DNA of 64,000 nt from an uncultured Clostridia bacterium. GTDB taxonomy: Bacteria > Bacillota > Clostridia > Christensenellales > UBA1242. Numbering within the stretch: position 1 is the stretch's first letter; every line of letters begins with the position of its first letter. The DNA is taken from the NCBI GenBank assembly GCA_934757855.1, contig CAKVLR010000002.1, positions 361,397-425,396 of the forward strand. Reading direction: 5' to 3'. The notes under the pieces are model-generated. The model was given only the letters and a program-made list of their open reading frames with translations. It did not search any database and had not been told where the DNA came from. Shown here in pieces: positions 50,585 to 63,441 of the stretch. A program made the position numbers and the translations under genes.

Positions 50585-50667
50585 GCGATTGTGGCGGAAT
50601 TGGCAGACGCGCTAGGTTCAGGTCTTAGTGGGAAACCGTGAAGGTTCAAATCCTTTCAATCGCACCA
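50585..50667 (+). tRNA. tRNA-Leu (anticodon CAG)
   Basis: Acceptor GCGATTG/CAATCGC, anticodon loop UUCAGGU, long variable arm, encoded CCA. Confidence 0.9.
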
Positions 50668-50690
50668 AAAGACCCCTTGCGGGTCTTTTT
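50668..50690 (+). terminator. rho-independent terminator
   Basis: GACCC-CTTGC-GGGTC followed by TTTTT. Confidence 0.8.
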
Positions 50691-50778
50691 GATTGAAAGG
50701 ATTTGAGAGAGCGTGCGCTCTCGCACTGCTCTAAAAGCAGTGAACCTTCACTTTCGTGAACGGACGCTCGCTGTTCTT
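50691..50778. other. tRNA-Leu-associated structured element, copy E2
   Basis: 16/16 nt (50691-50706) and 9/9 nt (50743-50751) are the reverse complement of the adjacent tRNA T-arm and 3' acceptor region. A 36-nt two-hairpin insert splits them. Homologous to 20353-20443. Confidence 0.7.
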
Positions 50779-50784
50779 AAAAAA

Positions 50785-50970
50785 CGATATTGACCTAGCG
50801 GTCAATGATATTACTCACTATCGTTCGTAGTGATATTATTTACTAGCGTAAATAATGATATGATATTTGCCTTCACTGCAAACAAAGTTTGCAATATCAC
50901 TCGCTAAGCGAATATCATTGCGGAGCAATATCACTCACGCAGTGAATATCACTGAGCCGTAGGCTCAATT
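50785..50970. repeat. array of eight different short hairpins separated by GATAT (x5), then ATATC (x4), linker words
   Basis: GATAT at 50786, 50807, 50832, 50857 and 50862. ATATC at 50894, 50912, 50928 and 50946. Hairpins at 50791-50804, 50815-50833, 50838-50853, 50877-50893, 50901-50911, 50917-50929, 50931-50945 and 50953-50967. Confidence 0.8.
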
Positions 50971-50974
50971 TCAT

Positions 50975-51019
50975 TGTAAACAAAAGGAAAAGCCTCATAG
51001 GCTTTCCTTTTTTGTTTAC
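50975..51019. terminator. long hairpin with flanking A/T tracts (bidirectional terminator type)
   Basis: GTAAACAAAAGGAAAAGCC-TCAT-AGGCTTTCCTTTTTTGTTTAC. Confidence 0.7.
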
Positions 51020-51090
51020 TGAGGGACTCACGCCGTTACGCTAACCAGCCTGTTATTCTATTAGCATCGTACGGACAGCGCTTCACTATC

Positions 51091-51160
51091 GTGCCGAGGT
51101 GCTAAAAACTTGCCACTGGCAATTTTTTCAAACGCACCTGTTCGAGTCCGACGACTATCG
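51091..51160 (+). other. inverted tRNA-Leu(CAA)-derived fragment (tRNA-like, not a functional tRNA)
   Basis: GTGCCGAG (the tRNA 5' end) and TGTTCGAGTCCG (a T-arm-like sequence) flank an unrelated hairpin AGGTGC..TTGCCAGTGGCAA..GCACCT. There is no matching acceptor 3' strand. Confidence 0.35.
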
Positions 51161-51201: not shown

Positions 51202-51288
51202 TGGTGCCGAGAGAGGGACTCGAACCCTCATGGGATTGCTCCCGGCAGATTTTGAGTCTACTGCGTCTGCCAATTTCGCCATCTCGGC
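51202..51288 (-). tRNA. tRNA-Leu (anticodon CAA)
   Basis: Acceptor GCCGAGA/TCTCGGC, anticodon loop CUCAAAA, long variable arm, T-arm GAGGGTTCGAGTCCCTC, encoded CCA. Confidence 0.9.
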
Positions 51289-57491: not shown

Positions 57492-60400
57492 ATGGCAAAA
57501 GAAAAAGAGAAATTAAAGCATACTAATTATAGCATTGGACTGGATATTGGTACAAATTCAGTTGGTTGGGCTGTTGTAGATGAAAATATGAATTTGGTTA
57601 AGCGTTGTAAAAAGCACTTATGGGGTAGTCGCTTGTTTGATGAGCGCGAAACAGCAAAAAATAGGCGTATATTTCGTACTACGCGCAGAAGGTTATTGCG
57701 TAGGCGTATTCGTATCGCAATACTAAATAAATTGCTACAAGATTTTGTTGGCGACCAAAACTTTTTTGTTAGAATGGAAGAAAGTTTTTTGCAGAAAAAC
57801 GACCGCACTTTGCAAAATAAATACACACTTTTTGATGAAGAAAGTTCTTGCGACATAAAATCAAGTGATGGCAAAATTTTATATACCATAACAAAAGATG
57901 ATGATTTTTATAAATTATTTCCTACAATTTATCACTTGCGCAAAAGCATTATTGAGCATCAAGATTGGATATTTGCTCCAAAACTGGTTTATTTAGCGAT
58001 TCACCATATCTTAAAGAGTCGTGGTAACTTTATCAATGAAAGTTTGGACTCAAAAAATAGCGATGATAAAAATACCGATGAGGACCAAGAACAAGAGATA
58101 GATATAAATAAATTATTTGTTAAAATTTTGCAAGATGCTTGTGATATATATGATGTGGAATTAGAAAATATTGATGAATTTAGCGAATATAAATGGATTA
58201 GAAATCTAAGTGCACAATCGCAGGTATTTTTTGAAGTTTTGCAAAATAATGATTTAAGCAAAGAAGCAAAAATTGCGCAAATAAAACAAAAATTTAATTG
58301 TGGAAAAGATGATACAGAAATTGAATCGCTCCTAAAATTGTTACTTGGCGATTTGGCGGATATCAACAAGATATTTAAGAGTGATACCAAAGAGAAATTT
58401 AAAGTGAAATTTTCAGAGGACAATATTGATGAAAAAATATTAGCAAGTGGTGAATATTCACAATTTTTAGAAAATGCTAAAAACTTGTATTCCTTGGTAG
58501 AGTATCAGCGAATTATGCAAGGCAAAAATTATCTTTCTGATGTAATGATAGAGCGATACAATCGTTACAAACAACAATTAAAAGACTTAAAAACTGTATT
58601 TTTAGCGATTTATCCAAAACAAAATGGCAAAATGCACCCAGAATATCGCAAGTTTTTCCGTGATTTAAAAACTGTTGATGGTTATGCTTGATATACATAT
58701 TCCGTTAATTCTTGTGATGAGAAAAAATTTAAAAGTACTATTATAGGGGCAATAAAAAATAATGAGCAAAAAATAATTAGTGCGGGCATTTGTGCGGAAG
58801 ACAACCAAAGTATTGCGGAAAAAGCGAAAAAAATCTTAATTTGTCTTGGAGAGTATTCGGCAAAAGATGGAAAAGAACAACTTTATGTTGGTATAGACTT
58901 TACAGACAAAGATTTTAGGACAGAGAGTGATAGGCAAAAGCAACAAGAGTTAGGCTTTTTACAGCGCCCTCGCGTGGCTGGTAATGGTATTTTCCCAAAA
59001 CAAGCACACCAAAAAGAATTAGATATAATTCTTAAAAATCAATCAGTATATTGGGGCAATTTTTTAAACAAAAAAACTGATTTCTCAAACAACACAATTC
59101 AAGAAGATATCAAAAAATTATTCAATTTTAAAATTGACTACTATGTTGGACCATTGGGTATCAGCAAAAATGGAACAAACAATTTTGGCTGGGTGGTACG
59201 CAAAGAAGGTTTTAGTGAAATAACTCCTTTTAATTATTACGATGCTGTTGATTTTGAGAAAACTCGTAAAAATTTTATTGAGAGAATGTCTGGCAACTGC
59301 TCATATATTTTGAATAAAAAAGCGTTACCTAAAAACTCAATGTATTACTGCTATTTTAATGTACTAAATGAATTATGCAATATTAGTATTTTGATAAAAG
59401 ACAAATTAATGAAATTGCACGAGATTTCACTAAATGGAAAAAATTGCTTTGATATTATTATTGATAAATTGCTCGAGAAAAATACCTTTAAACAAAAAGA
59501 TTTATTGCATATGCTGACAGAAGAATATGATGATGTGTCTATAAGAGGTTTTTCAAATGGCGAAAAGTTAAATTCTAATTTAAAATCAATTCGCGATATG
59601 GCTAGAATATTTGAGGATAGAAAATTAAATCATTGTGAAATTATGGAATTTCTAGGCAGTGAAAAAGCAAGTATGTATGAAGATGTAATTCGTGATGTTA
59701 CTATTTTCGGCGAAAGCAAAAAAGCACTAAAAGAATCTTTGAGTAAATATCATTTGAAGGAAGATGAAAAAGAGAGAGAGAAACAAATAAACGCCATTTG
59801 TGAGTTAAATTATTCTGGTTGGGGTAATTTGAGCAAAAAATTAATTTTTGGCATTGAATCTGAGAGTAGCGGGAACAAAATTCTAAAATTAATGGAAAGC
59901 GAACATAGAAACTTTATGTCTATTTATATGGACAAGCGATACGGCTTTGATGAGCAAGTAAAAAAACTAAACGAAGTAGATAAACCTAATGTCCTTGAGC
60001 AAATTAACTCGCTTGTTTGCTCTCCTAGCGTAAAAAGAGGGGTTAACCAAGCGTATAAAATTGTGGAGGAACTAGTACAAGTTATGGGACACGCTCCGCA
60101 AAATGTATTTTTAGAGTTCGCGCGTGGTGGAGATTCTAAGAAAAAAGGTAGTGTTATTCCAAACAGACAAAAACAAATTGACAAAAAATATAAAGATGCA
60201 AAAGCATTAAAAGATGGCTTATATGAAAAATATATAAATGCTGACGGTAAATTAAATGAAAATATAAGCCTTTTATCACAAAACGATAAAGAAAATGATA
60301 AATTAAAGAATAAATTTGATAATGAAAAAGTAGTACTATATTTCTTGCAAATGGGTAGATGTATGTACAGTAATGAGATATTAGACTTAAATCATATTAG

Positions 60401-62255
60401 CGAATATGAAGTGGACCACATCGTGCCTCAGTCGATTATAGATGATAATAGTTTTGATAATAAAGTTTTGGTTAAGGTGAAAAGAAATCAACAAAAATCC
60501 AATGGAATTTTAGAGATAAAAGACTCAGAAGTAACGAAATTATGGAAAGAGTTGCGTAAAATGGGGTTGTTGACAGTTGAAAAATATGATAGATTGCTCA
60601 AATTGCAGAATGGCACTCTGCTTGATAATACTGCTGGTTTTGTTGCTAGACAATTAGTGGAAACTAGGCAAATTATAAAAAATACCGCAGAAATTTTAAA
60701 AGACTACTTCAAAGAATATAATGCTAAATCTGCTCAAATTAATGCAGAAAATCAAGCATTTGAAACTTCGGTTTATCCTGTAAAGGCTGAGATGAATAGT
60801 ATTTTTAGACAAAAATTTGGTTATCCAAAGGGCGAAGGTGGCAGGGCTATCAATGACTTTCACCACGCAAAAGATGCCTATATCACAACGGTTATGGGGA
60901 CTTATATGCTAAATCATTGGCATTTAGATGACCCTAAAATGTGGTTTGTAGCAAGGAGTAAAAAGAATGAAGATGACCCTAAATTTGAATGTTCATTTTA
61001 TCAAAACTATATCGAAGATATAAAAGCGGAACAAGACACGCTAAACCCGCAAAATACAAATAAAAGCGGTGTGATTGTTGGTTCGATGAAGAAATATCAA
61101 GACAAAAATTGGTGTGGTAGCAAATGCGAAACTCATACAAACATTACTATTAAAGATGTGCTTAATAATTTTGACCGTAACTACTACTCCGCAGATTGTT
61201 ATTATTCAAGAAAAATTGATTCAAAACCAACAGGTGCTTTTTACGACCAAACCATTTACAAAAGCGACAAGAATAAAGAAAAGTTTGGGAAAACGCGCAA
61301 TCATGAGGGTATTGCGAGTATTTCTTTGGGAAAAATCAAAAAACCAATTATGCCATATGGTGAGAAGGTAGTGCAAAAAATCAATAGAATAGACTTAGAT
61401 GTGAGTAAATATGGTGGCTATTCTTCAACTAAATATGCATATTTTATGCTAATTGAGTACAAAGATGAAAAGGGTAAAGTAATTCAGGAAATAATTGGTT
61501 GTCCATACTACATATTAAAACAATCATCGAATGATATTGAATTAGTGAATAACATAAAAAATAATTTAATAATAAAAAACCAACAAGAATATACTAATTT
61601 TAAAATTTTAAATAAACGATTACCTAAAAAAAGTGTTTTGCAAACTAATTTGTATTCAAAAGTTTCGTTAGATCGGTCTGAACAATTCAAGATTATAAAT
61701 CGCTTCAGTATCCCACGAAATAATAAAGAATTATATCATTTTATTTATTTAATTTTTAAGTATACTAAGAGCAAAGATGAATATGAGGGTAATAGAAAGA
61801 TTACAATAAATTATATTGATTATAATGCATGGCTAAAAGAAAAACAGTATCCGTTAGGTGTGAATATAGATTTAGAGAATTATATAAATGAGAATTTTGC
61901 TAATTTTTATAAGATTTTTCTTGAATATGTTAAGTCAAAACATAGACATAAGACTTCTATAATTAATATTGAAAAAGCATATGCTAAGATTTGTAATGAA
62001 ACTGATTTAGATGCGATATATCACGATACCAATACAAAAACCATACTTGAAAAGAAATTATTATTTATTGTAGGGTTATTAAATATTTCAAAGGGAGAGG
62101 CAGATTTTACATTGTTTGATTTAGCAAAAAATTGTGGACTTATTAGGATTACACAGGAAGTGGACTGGTATAACACTTACATTATTCACAATTCCATAAC
62201 TGGTATTTATTGCACAAAAGAAAAAATAATAAAAAATACACAAGAAAATAGGTAA
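57492..62255 (+). CDS. cas9: Cas9 (type II-A), 1587-codon frame interrupted by one in-frame TGA at 58689-58691 (possible pseudogene or read-through)
   Basis: RuvC-I YSIGLDIGTNSVGWAVV; Arg-rich bridge helix RRIFRTTRRRLLRRRIRI; RuvC-II VFLEFARG; HNH YEVDHIVPQS..N; RuvC-III NDFHHAKDAY. ORF-track pieces 57492-58691 and 58974-62255 are in the same frame, and 58692-58973 is open. Confidence 0.93.
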
Positions 62256-62258
62256 AAT

Positions 62259-63131
62259 ATGAGTTTTAGGACTGTTTTAATTACTCAAAAATCAAAGTTA
62301 TCATACAAAGATAACTTTTTGGTTATTCAAGGTAAAACAACAAATATGGTGCATTTAAGCGAAATTCATACTATTATTGTTGAATCTACAATGGTGCAAA
62401 TATCGGCATATCTTTTAGCTCAATTATCTGCAAACAAAATCAAATTGATTGTTTGCGATGAACGCCACAACCCTACAGCAGAAATGGTACCATATTATGC
62501 AAATTACAATACATCAAAAAGATTTTTAAATCAGGTCAAATGGAATGAGGAAAGTAAAAAAGCCCTTTGGACAAAAATAGTATCAAATAAAATACTAAAT
62601 CAGGCAAGAATTTTAAAAAATTTTGGAATAGAAAGACACAAAATGTTGCTAGGATATTTGAGTGAGGTAGAATTAAACGATGAAACAAATAGAGAGGGAC
62701 ATTCTGCAAAAGTCTATTTTAATAGTTTGTTTGGTATGGATTTTTCGCGGGACAAGGTTTGTGATATAAATATGGCATTAGATTACGGATATACTATTAT
62801 TTTATCTGCGTTTAATCGTACTATATCTAGTTTGGGTTATGCAAACCAATTAGGAATTAAACATAAAAATGAGTACAATTTCTTTAACCTAGGTTGCGAC
62901 CTTATGGAGCCGTTTCGAGTGGTTATAGATGAATTTGTGTATGAAAATCGTGAGCGAATGTTTGATTCTTCATACAAACAAGATTTGGTGCAGTTGTTAA
63001 ATAAGAATATTAATTATTGTGGCAAAAATATGATTTTAACCAATGCAATAAATATATTTGTGCTAAACGCGTTGCGCGCAATTGATGAAAATAGAATAGC
63101 GGAGTATGAAGCATATGAGTACGGAGTATAG
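62259..63131 (+). CDS. cas1: Cas1 (type II)
   Basis: Strong similarity by eye to S. pyogenes Cas1: SKLSYK.N.L, NREGHSAKVYFNSLFG.DFSRD, LDYGYT, EPFR. Confidence 0.95.
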   Translation: MSFRTVLITQKSKLSYKDNFLVIQGKTTNMVHLSEIHTIIVESTMVQISAYLLAQLSANKIKLIVCDERHNPTAEMVPYYANYNTSKRFLNQVKWNEESKKALWTKIVSNKILNQARILKNFGIERHKMLLGYLSEVELNDETNREGHSAKVYFNSLFGMDFSRDKVCDINMALDYGYTIILSAFNRTISSLGYANQLGIKHKNEYNFFNLGCDLMEPFRVVIDEFVYENRERMFDSSYKQDLVQLLNKNINYCGKNMILTNAINIFVLNALRAIDENRIAEYEAYEYGV

Positions 63132-63441
63132 ATTTATGAGATTAATTGTATTTTTCGATTTGCCTACATTTACAAAAAAAGATTTGCAAAATTACAATCA
63201 ATTTAGAAGATTTTTAATAAAAGAAGGTTTTGCAATGATGCAAGAATCTGTTTATACAAAAATTTTGCTAAACGGAACTATGGCGGGGCTTTTAAAAGAG
63301 AGAATAAAAAAGAATTCCCCTCGAAATGGGCTTATTCAACTGCTTTTAGTTACCGAAAAGCAGTTTGCAAACATTGAATTTGTATCGGGAGAGTCTAAAA
63401 GTATAATAGAAGATTCAGACAAAAGGTTTGTGGTGTATTGA
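63115..63441 (+). CDS. cas2: Cas2 (type II)
   Basis: MSTEYRFMRLIVFFDLPT...EGFAMMQESVYTKILLN...VTEKQFANI parallels S. pyogenes Cas2. The start is ambiguous (63106, 63115 or 63136). The TGA stop overlaps the csn2 ATG. Confidence 0.92.
   Translation: MSTEYRFMRLIVFFDLPTFTKKDLQNYNQFRRFLIKEGFAMMQESVYTKILLNGTMAGLLKERIKKNSPRNGLIQLLLVTEKQFANIEFVSGESKSIIEDSDKRFVVY

Follow-up and report, generated by a model that had tools for sequence, protein, structure and literature searches.

Locus and array

The window analyzed here is a 64,000-nt stretch of the genome of an uncultured Clostridia bacterium (GenBank assembly GCA_934757855.1, contig CAKVLR010000002.1, positions 361,397 to 425,396), and our subject is an array of short words and palindromes at 50784-50976, between two tRNA-Leu genes. 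We identified this array as belonging to a repeat element with many hairpins that is dispersed among gut Clostridia and one half of which is catalogued in Rfam as Gut-1 (RF01706); the copy in the window is solo and partly degenerate. Read on the minus strand, the locus begins with tRNA-Leu(caa) (51202..51288), the co-oriented gene upstream of the element, which has its own promoter (51333-51305) and terminator (51196-51169). Then follow ~150 nt of tRNA-like debris, a long terminator-like hairpin (H0) that opens the element, five left-arm units, a centre and three right-arm hairpins, the element ending in H7 and a T-run. The other gene, tRNA-Leu(cag) (50585..50667, plus strand, terminator at 50670-50692), is convergent with the element.

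On the plus strand the array reads as five GATAT words (starting at 50786, 50807, 50832, 50857 and 50862) and then four ATATC words (50894, 50912, 50928 and 50946), with short palindromes between them. The window as a whole holds 103 GATAT and 98 ATATC, giving an expectation of ~0.3 each per 186 nt, and the Poisson probabilities of the observed excess are 1.6e-5 and 2.2e-4, respectively. A three-word pattern with spacers matched twice in the array, compared with 0.00 matches in 100 dinucleotide shuffles of the window. Folding of 50775-51022 (248 nt) gave z-scores of -8.9 and -8.3 on the two strands relative to 200 shuffles, none of which folded as well on either strand. Thus, shuffled controls, which the initial annotation of this DNA had named as a possible refutation, do not account for the array that it described.

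That annotation also held every hairpin between the words to be perfectly paired over 4-7 bp. This is correct for seven of the eight inter-word segments: TTGACC/GGTCAA (50790-50805), TATTTAC/GTAAATA (50837-50854), TGCAAAC/GTTTGCA (50877-50893), TCGC/GCGA (50901-50911), TTGC/GCAA (50918-50928), TCAC/GTGA (50935-50945) and TGAGCC/GGCTCA (50953-50967). The eighth (50812-50831) has a stem of only ~3 bp and a loop of 12-13 nt. The word orientation does flip, as had been noted, at the central hairpin, TGCAAAC-AAA-GTTTGCA.

The Gut-1 covariance model matched positions 50907-50976 of the minus strand (model 1-77) with 54.7 bits (E = 4.6e-8), above the gathering score of 50 bits, and the opposite arm (50782-50866, plus strand) with 33.4 bits, below it. 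Because the model matches on both strands, the "mirrored" array can be described as two convergent Gut-1-like arrays. Three successive hairpins with GUGAAAU-like linkers and covarying stems, the features that mark Gut-1, are present in the window copy and its relatives. The array therefore does not stand apart from everything known, as had been supposed, since half of it exceeds the gathering score of a known family; the idea of a multi-hairpin RNA agrees with the cataloguing of that half. We read the window copy on the minus strand, where an nhmmer search with the family profile described below gave a stronger match (E = 6.9e-13) than on the other strand (1.5e-6). The array was rightly kept apart from CRISPR arrays, attC sites and riboswitches; its constant parts are 7 nt long and its variable parts are palindromes, whereas a CRISPR array has repeats of 25-40 nt and non-palindromic spacers.

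H0 (50976..51019, minus strand; GTAAACAAAAAAGGAAAGCC / GGCTTTTCCTTTTGTTTAC) is terminator-like on both strands and aligns with the H0 of the family, a hairpin found 3' of a stop codon or a tRNA CCA end in relatives; it corresponds to the bidirectional terminator recognized earlier at 50975-51019. The left arm (50894..50976, minus strand), equivalent to Rfam Gut-1, carries the minus-strand words CAATGAAAT, GTGATAT, GTGATAT, ATGATAT and GTGATAT, with one hairpin per word: H1 (50953-50967), H2 (50935-50945), H3 (50918-50928) and H4 (50901-50911), while the central hairpin (50877..50893) is the fifth of this arm and aligns to the H4 position of the family. The centre (50855..50876) reads GTGAAGGCAAATATCATATCAT on the minus strand and is the counterpart of the family strand 'c' (GGCGAATATAATATCAC), which pairs with a strand 'a' at the left arm's start to form a long-range helix, P0. 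In the right arm (50784..50854) the minus-strand words are ATATCAT, ATATCAC, ATATCAT and ATATCGT, the plus strand reading as GATAT plus hairpin, and the hairpins are H5 (50837-50854), the degenerate H6 (50812-50831) and H7 (50790-50805). H7 and the T-run (50779..50806, minus strand; ATTGACCGCTAGGTCAAT ATCGTTTTTT) form a terminator-like end.

The layout is shared with a 35%-GC metagenomic relative (L340), in which a tRNA-Thr gene, H0 and the element are followed by a convergent tRNA, the same tRNA-element-tRNA arrangement as in the window. Conserved blocks, including the centre, are common to the two, and the stems differ by compensatory changes, e.g., TATTTAC/GTAAATA versus TATTTGC/GCAAATA. 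Conservation in relatives, whose absence had been named as grounds for rejecting the array, is therefore clear, with ~100 homologous elements found. The P0 duplex energy of the window copy is -7.1 kcal/mol, compared with -14.9 in L340 and -18.4 in the main type, and the gene for a four-helix-bundle protein that adjoins full-length elements (see below) is absent beside it. We read the weak P0, the decayed H6 and the lack of this gene as marks of an old solo copy, which is probably a passive relic. The window array is a low-GC, degenerate member of an already known family that lacks an assigned function.

The element family

Scanning one genome per species for the pattern gave at least 120 matches, and among those listed nearly all were from gut or rumen Clostridia (Oscillospiraceae, Acutalibacteraceae, Christensenellaceae, Lachnospiraceae), with a few from Akkermansia. 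The carriers include the cultured Roseburia sp. AF12-17LB and Butyrivibrio crossotus. A family profile built from 11 copies yielded 83 good non-overlapping elements, and a metagenome scan added ~20 further full copies and several divergent subfamilies, so that the search for similar arrays proposed at the outset returned ~100 relatives overall, sampled as fragmentary loci of metagenome-assembled genomes (MAGs). In viral contigs the loose three-word pattern gave mostly noise, with the element in one contig only (L046). The relatives score 51-64 bits with the Rfam model.

Alignment of these copies shows that Gut-1 is just the left arm of a ~175-nt element, the Rfam model spanning H1 to H3 only. 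The element consists of a terminator-like hairpin, a left array of GTGATAT plus hairpin, a long-range helix and a mirrored right array of hairpin plus ATATCAC. Its first half runs H0, 'a' (TTATATTCGCC), 'b' (GGCGAG, which pairs with 'a' as H1), GTKNTAT, H2, GTGATAT, H3, GTGATAT, H4, and its second half GTTTnn, 'c' (GGCGAATATAA), ATATCAC, H5, ATATCAC, H6, ATATCAC, H7, ATATCACT. The left and right arrays are built of the same unit, the 7-nt word GTGATAT abutting a short C-G-closed hairpin, placed on opposite strands, and in most subfamilies P0 joins the two arrays.

Gut-1 was described as a probable noncoding RNA (ncRNA) from human-gut metagenomes only, with no sequenced organism and no function (Weinberg et al. 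2010, PMC2864571), and is typed "sRNA" (small RNA) in Rfam. The elements found here share with it at least three hairpins, GUGA(A/U)AU linkers between them and gut-associated hosts. However, both the Rfam model and the paper describe the left arm only; the mirrored right arm, the long-range helix, H0, the terminator/tRNA context, the dispersal and the four-helix-bundle gene are not part of that description, and no further paper on Gut-1 was found in the literature searched. The published seed sequences with their flanks do contain GUGAUAU-hairpin arrays followed by hairpin-AUAUCAC arrays, and one has a tRNA and a terminator just upstream.

Several variants were seen. Two Akkermansia MAG loci (L122, L125) hold left-arm-only arrays with TGAAAT words, without a mirrored right arm and with up to three arrays per 1 kb; these are nearer to the Rfam consensus (GUGAAAU) than the Clostridia type. 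Insertions of 20-36 nt are tolerated in hairpin loops, in H1 of L230 (2226-2332) and H4 of L234 (750-943), with the remainder unchanged. A second conserved hairpin module (GGGTTTGGG..CCCAA..GCRTTTG..CAAATGCGATGC..GGTTCT) lies 20-65 nt downstream of 14 of the 83 elements (L231, L212, L133, L219, L237 and others) and matched no Rfam family at gathering score.

Conserved pairing and strand signals

The alignment-based covariation test suggested for the array was positive: across 65 sequences, double compensatory changes occur in 24 of the 36 pairs predicted by RNAalifold, which picked P0 (a:c) together with H2, H3, H5, H6 and H7. A single P0 pair, for example, was seen as AU in 29, CG in 17 and UA in 16 sequences. 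P0 competes with the local hairpin H1 (a:b), and L252, L254, L340 and L367 retain both with unrelated sequences; thus, the three-way relation among a, b and c is itself conserved. Non-Watson-Crick pairs in the P0 core, read on the element strand, are of the G-U/G-T type in 11 cases and of the A-C type in one. P0 therefore folds in the element strand, which is the minus strand in the window. The pairs of the local hairpins, by contrast, are almost wholly Watson-Crick (1283, with 11 G-U and 7 A-C), and their wobbles show no strand bias.

The loops are mirrored. Those of the left arm are of the T..C form in 46 cases and never G..A, whereas those of the right arm are G..A in 65 cases and never T..C, so that each arm, on its own strand, presents the same unit. 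The closing pair is C-G in ~90% of the hairpins, and triloops make up 45% of the loops. C-G-closed GNA/GNNA loops, d(cGNAg) and d(cGNNAg), are the "mini-hairpin DNA" motif known from phage N4 promoters and from sites of single-strand priming (PMC13037366). The right-arm tetraloops (GTAA, GCAA, GAAA) are also of the GNRA type, which suits RNA.

These signals bear on the main rival explanation, a serious one although less likely than not, namely that the element is a functional ncRNA, Gut-1 RNA proper, made as the 3' trailer of an upstream tRNA, rRNA or mRNA through terminator read-through or processing. P0 would then close a multi-branched left domain, and the right arm would show four invariant single-stranded AAUAUCACU words between clamp hairpins, the whole serving as a platform, similar to CsrB/RsmZ, to which an RNA-binding protein would attach in several copies or as a multimer; a pentamer of the Avd-like four-helix bundle would be the obvious candidate. 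The one-stranded wobbles of P0 and the recovery of P0 and five local hairpins by RNAalifold with covariation agree with such an RNA, as do the GNRA tetraloops of the right arm on the element strand and the fact that the right-arm words are almost invariant, whereas those of the left arm vary at positions 3-4. The near absence of G-U among ~1300 local stem pairs does not, and a single plus-strand RNA leaves it unexplained why the left-arm loops are exclusively complementary to the right-arm type. CsrB and RsmZ likewise repeat a short conserved single-stranded motif between or on hairpins; yet their motif is a different one, no promoter of its own was found for the element, its mirrored second arm has no counterpart in them, and its protein partner is only guessed.

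The pairing also speaks to the idea of a double-stranded DNA site array, iteron- or operator-like, for a protein that recognizes GTGATAT/ATATCAC, in which the palindromic spacers would be incidental and the role might be regulation of the promoter that abuts the right end. Four direct ATATCAC repeats do lie ~22-26 bp apart, the last of them touching the -35 box of the four-helix-bundle gene and of other promoters, and the word variants of the left and right arms tend to shift in a mirrored fashion (Fisher p ~0.004, uncorrected for relatedness). However, duplex binding predicts neither that spacer pairing survives many double substitutions nor that loops are strand-specific; in addition, P0 covaries with one-stranded wobbles and the spacing is not fixed. 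We regard this explanation as highly improbable. The suggestion that the array is a series of sites for a dimeric DNA-binding protein does not fit either, as the stems vary freely yet stay paired and the loops are strand-asymmetric.

Three further structural candidates were rejected. A ladder fold, with the words of the left arm paired to those of the right, has no position-specific pairing support, and the words of subfamily L324/L297 are non-complementary (GTGATAT versus ATATAAC); the loose mirrored co-variation is all that remains of this idea. Loop complements within single elements, compared by eye, do not match, which discounts kissing loops between the arms. Inspection of TATAAT inside 'c', a possible promoter in the centre, revealed no usable -35 box at the right distance.

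Genomic niche and dispersal

The nearest upstream open reading frame (ORF) is co-oriented with the element in 56 of 72 cases (56 versus 16) at a median gap of ~60 nt, and where the genes on both sides form a tandem pair, co-oriented elements outnumber the others 26 to 9. Eighteen of the 83 elements begin immediately 3' of the CCA of tRNA genes that have the same orientation and are of varied identity, and none of the 83 has a co-oriented tRNA downstream; the link to tRNA genes recognized in the window is therefore a true trait of the family, seen also in L340. One copy closes an rRNA operon, and other upstream genes include ppdK, gpmI, cysK, rplL and groEL, as well as ordinary regulators and transporters. 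At the other side, the right end of many copies abuts a sigma-70-like promoter (e.g., ATATCAC-TTGACT-17-TATAAT), one subfamily has a conserved bidirectional terminator there, and in subfamily A a further hairpin, H8, is terminator-like. Given these flanking terminators and promoters, the element fills a transcriptionally quiet gap between the terminator of the upstream unit and the promoter of the next.

Co-oriented adjacency to upstream genes, highly expressed ones (tRNAs, the rRNA operon, rplL, groEL, ppdK) included, and terminator-like ends on the same strand (H7 with its T-run in the window, H8 in subfamily A) would suit an ncRNA released by read-through. Nonetheless, there is no room for a promoter ahead of the element and none is conserved, and a terminator-like hairpin precedes it, so that little RNA may be made.

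The same position raises the idea of a fail-safe bidirectional transcription insulator, in which leaked polymerases would meet a series of hairpins and then GUGAUAUU, and would pause or terminate, protecting the neighbours. Besides the location between terminator and next promoter, behind very strongly transcribed units, this explanation draws on the terminator-like nature of H0, H7 and H8 and on the fact that the first arm met has the same polarity from either direction. Yet the tract 3' of each internal hairpin (AGUGAUAU) is not a U-tract, an invariant 7-mer and a conserved long-range helix are dispensable for termination, and both the four-helix-bundle linkage and the dispersal of near-identical copies are left unexplained. 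An insulator is thus improbable.

That dispersal is extensive. Among 35 pairs of elements at least 90% identical, 34 lack homologous flanks, the exception being a tandem duplication. Two copies that are 97.6% identical lie 2.7 kb apart on one contig, behind different native terminators, and several 8-kb loci hold two copies. Such behaviour is that of a mobile or copy-pasted repeat, unlike that of a vertically inherited single-copy RNA gene, and an ncRNA function leaves highly similar copies at unrelated loci unexplained. No terminal inverted repeats or target duplications were found at the boundaries of near-identical copies, and the sole inverted repeat (a/c) encloses the left arm alone. The element is accordingly no miniature inverted-repeat transposable element (MITE) derived from a DDE transposon, a class recognized by those two features. 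An inverton was likewise rejected, the a/c-bounded segment being in the normal orientation in 51 cases and flipped in none.

It had been suggested that the array is a replication or partition locus of a decayed element, and we considered more broadly a remnant of a plasmid or integrated-element replication function (a partition site, a single-strand origin or single-strand initiation (ssi) signals) inserted between two tRNA genes. Two loops of the window copy read TAGCG(T), which we take to resemble the CS-6 hexamer of ssoA. TAGC loops are not conserved in relatives, however, and an ssoA-type origin, which would be expected on a rolling-circle replicon together with RSB and a CS-6 (TAGCGT) loop, was rejected on this ground (TAGCG loops occur only in the window copy) and on the chromosomal context without a rep gene. 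The ssi sites of G4 and RSF1010 contain mini-hairpins of the cGNAg type (PMC13037366). The sites ssiA and ssiB are on opposite strands. More generally, the ssi signals (G4 oric, RSF1010 ssiA/ssiB), ssoA and the phage N4 early hairpin promoters resemble the element in combining C-G-closed GNA/GNNA DNA mini-hairpins with an adjacent single-stranded recognition sequence, but they are single sites on replicons or phages by replication genes, whereas the element is a chromosomal multi-copy array of 7-9 units without replication genes. The same element lies at dozens of unrelated, ordinary chromosomal intergenic sites behind ordinary genes, with no replication or partition genes and no rep, mob, par or integrase genes nearby. 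These genomic contexts largely refute a replicon remnant, which we find hardly credible. A chromosomal replication origin or terminus was also discarded, since the GC skew does not switch at the array and the element exists in many copies.

A closer analogy is offered by repetitive extragenic palindromic sequences and bacterial interspersed mosaic elements (REP/BIME). The initial annotation dismissed these, and although the element is not a member it is functionally closest to them. Both consist of extragenic palindromic units with a short conserved word at the hairpin foot, clustered in opposed orientation, and both occur near gene 3' ends, behind terminators, in many dispersed copies at unrelated loci that are presumably recognized as folded single strands. 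There are also differences: the foot word of the element is (R)TGATAT/GTKNTAT and its stems are perfect, as opposed to GTAG at an imperfect palindrome; its 7-8 hairpins all differ, with position-specific identity, and form ~175-nt composite repeats rather than a single palindrome; and the 375 ORFs neighbouring the 83 elements include no family of REP-associated tyrosine transposases (RAYT, Y1), the linked gene being a four-helix bundle. Similar to BOX, ERIC (enterobacterial repetitive intergenic consensus), Correia and EFAR-type (MITE-like) repeats, the element is a modular, structured intergenic repeat in the 100-250-nt range, sometimes with promoters or terminators. Unlike them, it has no terminal inverted repeats or target duplications, follows its own logic of constant words, variable stems and mirrored loops, and occurs in other taxa.

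Between H0 and the tRNA-Leu(caa) terminator, 51020-51160 contains tRNA-like debris that includes a T-arm-like TGAGGGACTCACGCCG and a second piece, GCCGAGGTGC...GCACCTGTTCGAGTCCGAC on the plus strand, with an internal hairpin at 51110-51122. ARAGORN called no tRNA in 51020-51160, yet the debris may be a decayed tRNA gene, because the elements of relatives begin right after a tRNA CCA end. Directly past the terminator of tRNA-Leu(cag) (50670-50692), the 3' part of that tRNA is repeated in inverted orientation at 50693-50760, with its sense on the minus strand, as GTGAAGGTTCA, a 33-nt insert and TCAAATCCTTTCAATC. This copy and the true tRNA-Leu(cag) end make up a long, interrupted inverted repeat with the terminator between them.

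A four-helix-bundle gene follows the full-length element

We clustered the 375 neighbouring ORFs of the 83 elements and found a single enriched neighbour, a four-helix-bundle protein of 116-134 aa; no other gene was enriched. The protein belongs to PF05635 (E = 3e-28) and TIGR02436, the families that also hold Avd of diversity-generating retroelements (DGRs) and the proteins of 23S rRNA intervening sequences, but it falls far below the cut-off of the Avd equivalog model (18 versus 80 bits). Among solved structures the nearest is 2RLD, which contains five chains. Avd itself is a pentamer that binds nucleic acid and partners a structured RNA. The protein is not in PADLOC, the PF05635 literature covers the DGR Avd link only, and among the called genes and Pfam hits of the examined neighbourhoods there was no reverse transcriptase and no template or variable repeat.

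The full form of the element is directly followed by this Avd-like gene. In the DNA fetched to that point, eight of nine tblastn matches to the protein lay directly downstream of an element on the same strand. Upstream of all six independently chosen homologues, a full element ended 25-45 nt before the start codon; these six elements sit behind rplL, groEL, a hexapeptide transferase, a PHP protein, a ZIP transporter and mnmE. Loci with both gene and element are L128, L129, L137, L182, L184, L239, L268, L367 and L368-L383, L367 retaining only a C-terminal remnant of the gene. The gene's own promoter starts at the last word of the element. The family is large, with more than 4000 clusters at 90% identity (E < 1e-30), mostly on contigs shorter than 2 kb, as would be expected of a multi-copy sequence.

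This linkage, with the five-chained 2RLD as the nearest structure, can be counted in favour of an ncRNA that binds the protein. The promoter, however, lies downstream of the element, which places the element outside the mRNA of the gene.

Possible mode of action

The identity of the element is secure; how it works we infer from these features. Tentatively, and by analogy, our leading candidate is a REP/BIME-like DNA repeat whose units may be recognized as folded single-stranded DNA, on opposite strands, by one or more binding or copying proteins. The palindromes would fold into stable mini-hairpins once the DNA becomes single-stranded and would be recognized in that state, and the word at each hairpin foot would be a sequence-specific handle by which a protein binds, copies or moves the element. 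The mirror layout would follow from a need to display one and the same unit on both strands, and any Gut-1 RNA from terminator read-through would be secondary. The mirrored units and loops, the stems with Watson-Crick pairs only, the quiet position and the dispersal are best explained in this way.

Several observations weigh against such a DNA repeat. The 375 ORFs neighbouring the 83 elements include no gene for a transposase, a RAYT or an HUH protein; a four-helix bundle makes an implausible catalyst of movement; and neither an empty site nor a target duplication was demonstrated. The P0 wobbles on the element strand (11 G-U type versus one A-C type) and the tight, co-oriented joining of the element to upstream genes suit a read-through RNA equally well. 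Gut-1 was judged to be an RNA by Weinberg et al. (PMC2864571), UUCG-type loops, which are typical of RNA, occur in Rfam seeds of other subfamilies, and the GNRA-type tetraloops also stabilize RNA, so that the loops are compatible with RNA too. Judged from sequence, the evidence that Gut-1 acts as an RNA is ambiguous, with the one-stranded wobbles of P0 on one side and the mirrored loops and scarcity of G-U pairs on the other.

It is also conceivable, though unlikely, that the extended Gut-1 element and the PF05635 gene form a self-propagating module of two parts, previously unrecognized. The Avd-like protein, as a pentamer, would bind the units of word and mini-hairpin (four per arm, on opposite strands) of the element that flanks its own gene, either as single-stranded DNA or as RNA, and the complex of protein and element would drive copying, including that of gene-less derivatives, to sites behind terminators and tRNA genes.

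Other features of the window and related loci

Judged by eye on translations alone, 57492-63441 carries a type II CRISPR-Cas gene set, with a Cas9-like ORF split into 57492-58691 and 58974-62255, followed by a cas1-like (62259-63131) and a cas2-like (63106-63441) gene. Homologues of the DUF421 gene that neighbours the window copy, up to 76% identical and on usable contigs, revealed no shared synteny. In one of these loci (L242; DUF421 67% identical), a small CRISPR-like array with the repeat ATTATACCATACCAAAATTTAATAGGGAACTAAAAC occupies 1900-2300, upstream of the DUF421 gene and in the place of the element. Metagenomes scanned at the protein level with the 315-aa neighbour gave no relative, and exact-match look-ups of two proteins of the window were likewise negative.

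Significance

For the window itself the message is modest: the array is a repeat of an annotated class, probably a decaying solo copy, and no new regulatory device of two tRNA-Leu genes. For the family it is broader. Gut-1, an orphan motif since 2010, can now be placed in named genomes, cultured ones included, and the catalogued motif turns out to be half of a larger mirrored element with the behaviour of a dispersed repeat. The sole Gut-1 paper found mentions none of the following: the full architecture, the repetition, the terminator/tRNA niche and the Avd-like link. Gut-1 is thereby tied to a very abundant protein family, the non-DGR Avd-like four-helix bundles, and the nature of Gut-1 and the role of the orphan PF05635 proteins become one testable question. 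If the two-part module were true, it would represent a new class of mobile or "addictive" element and provide a first function both for the non-DGR homologues of Avd and for Gut-1.

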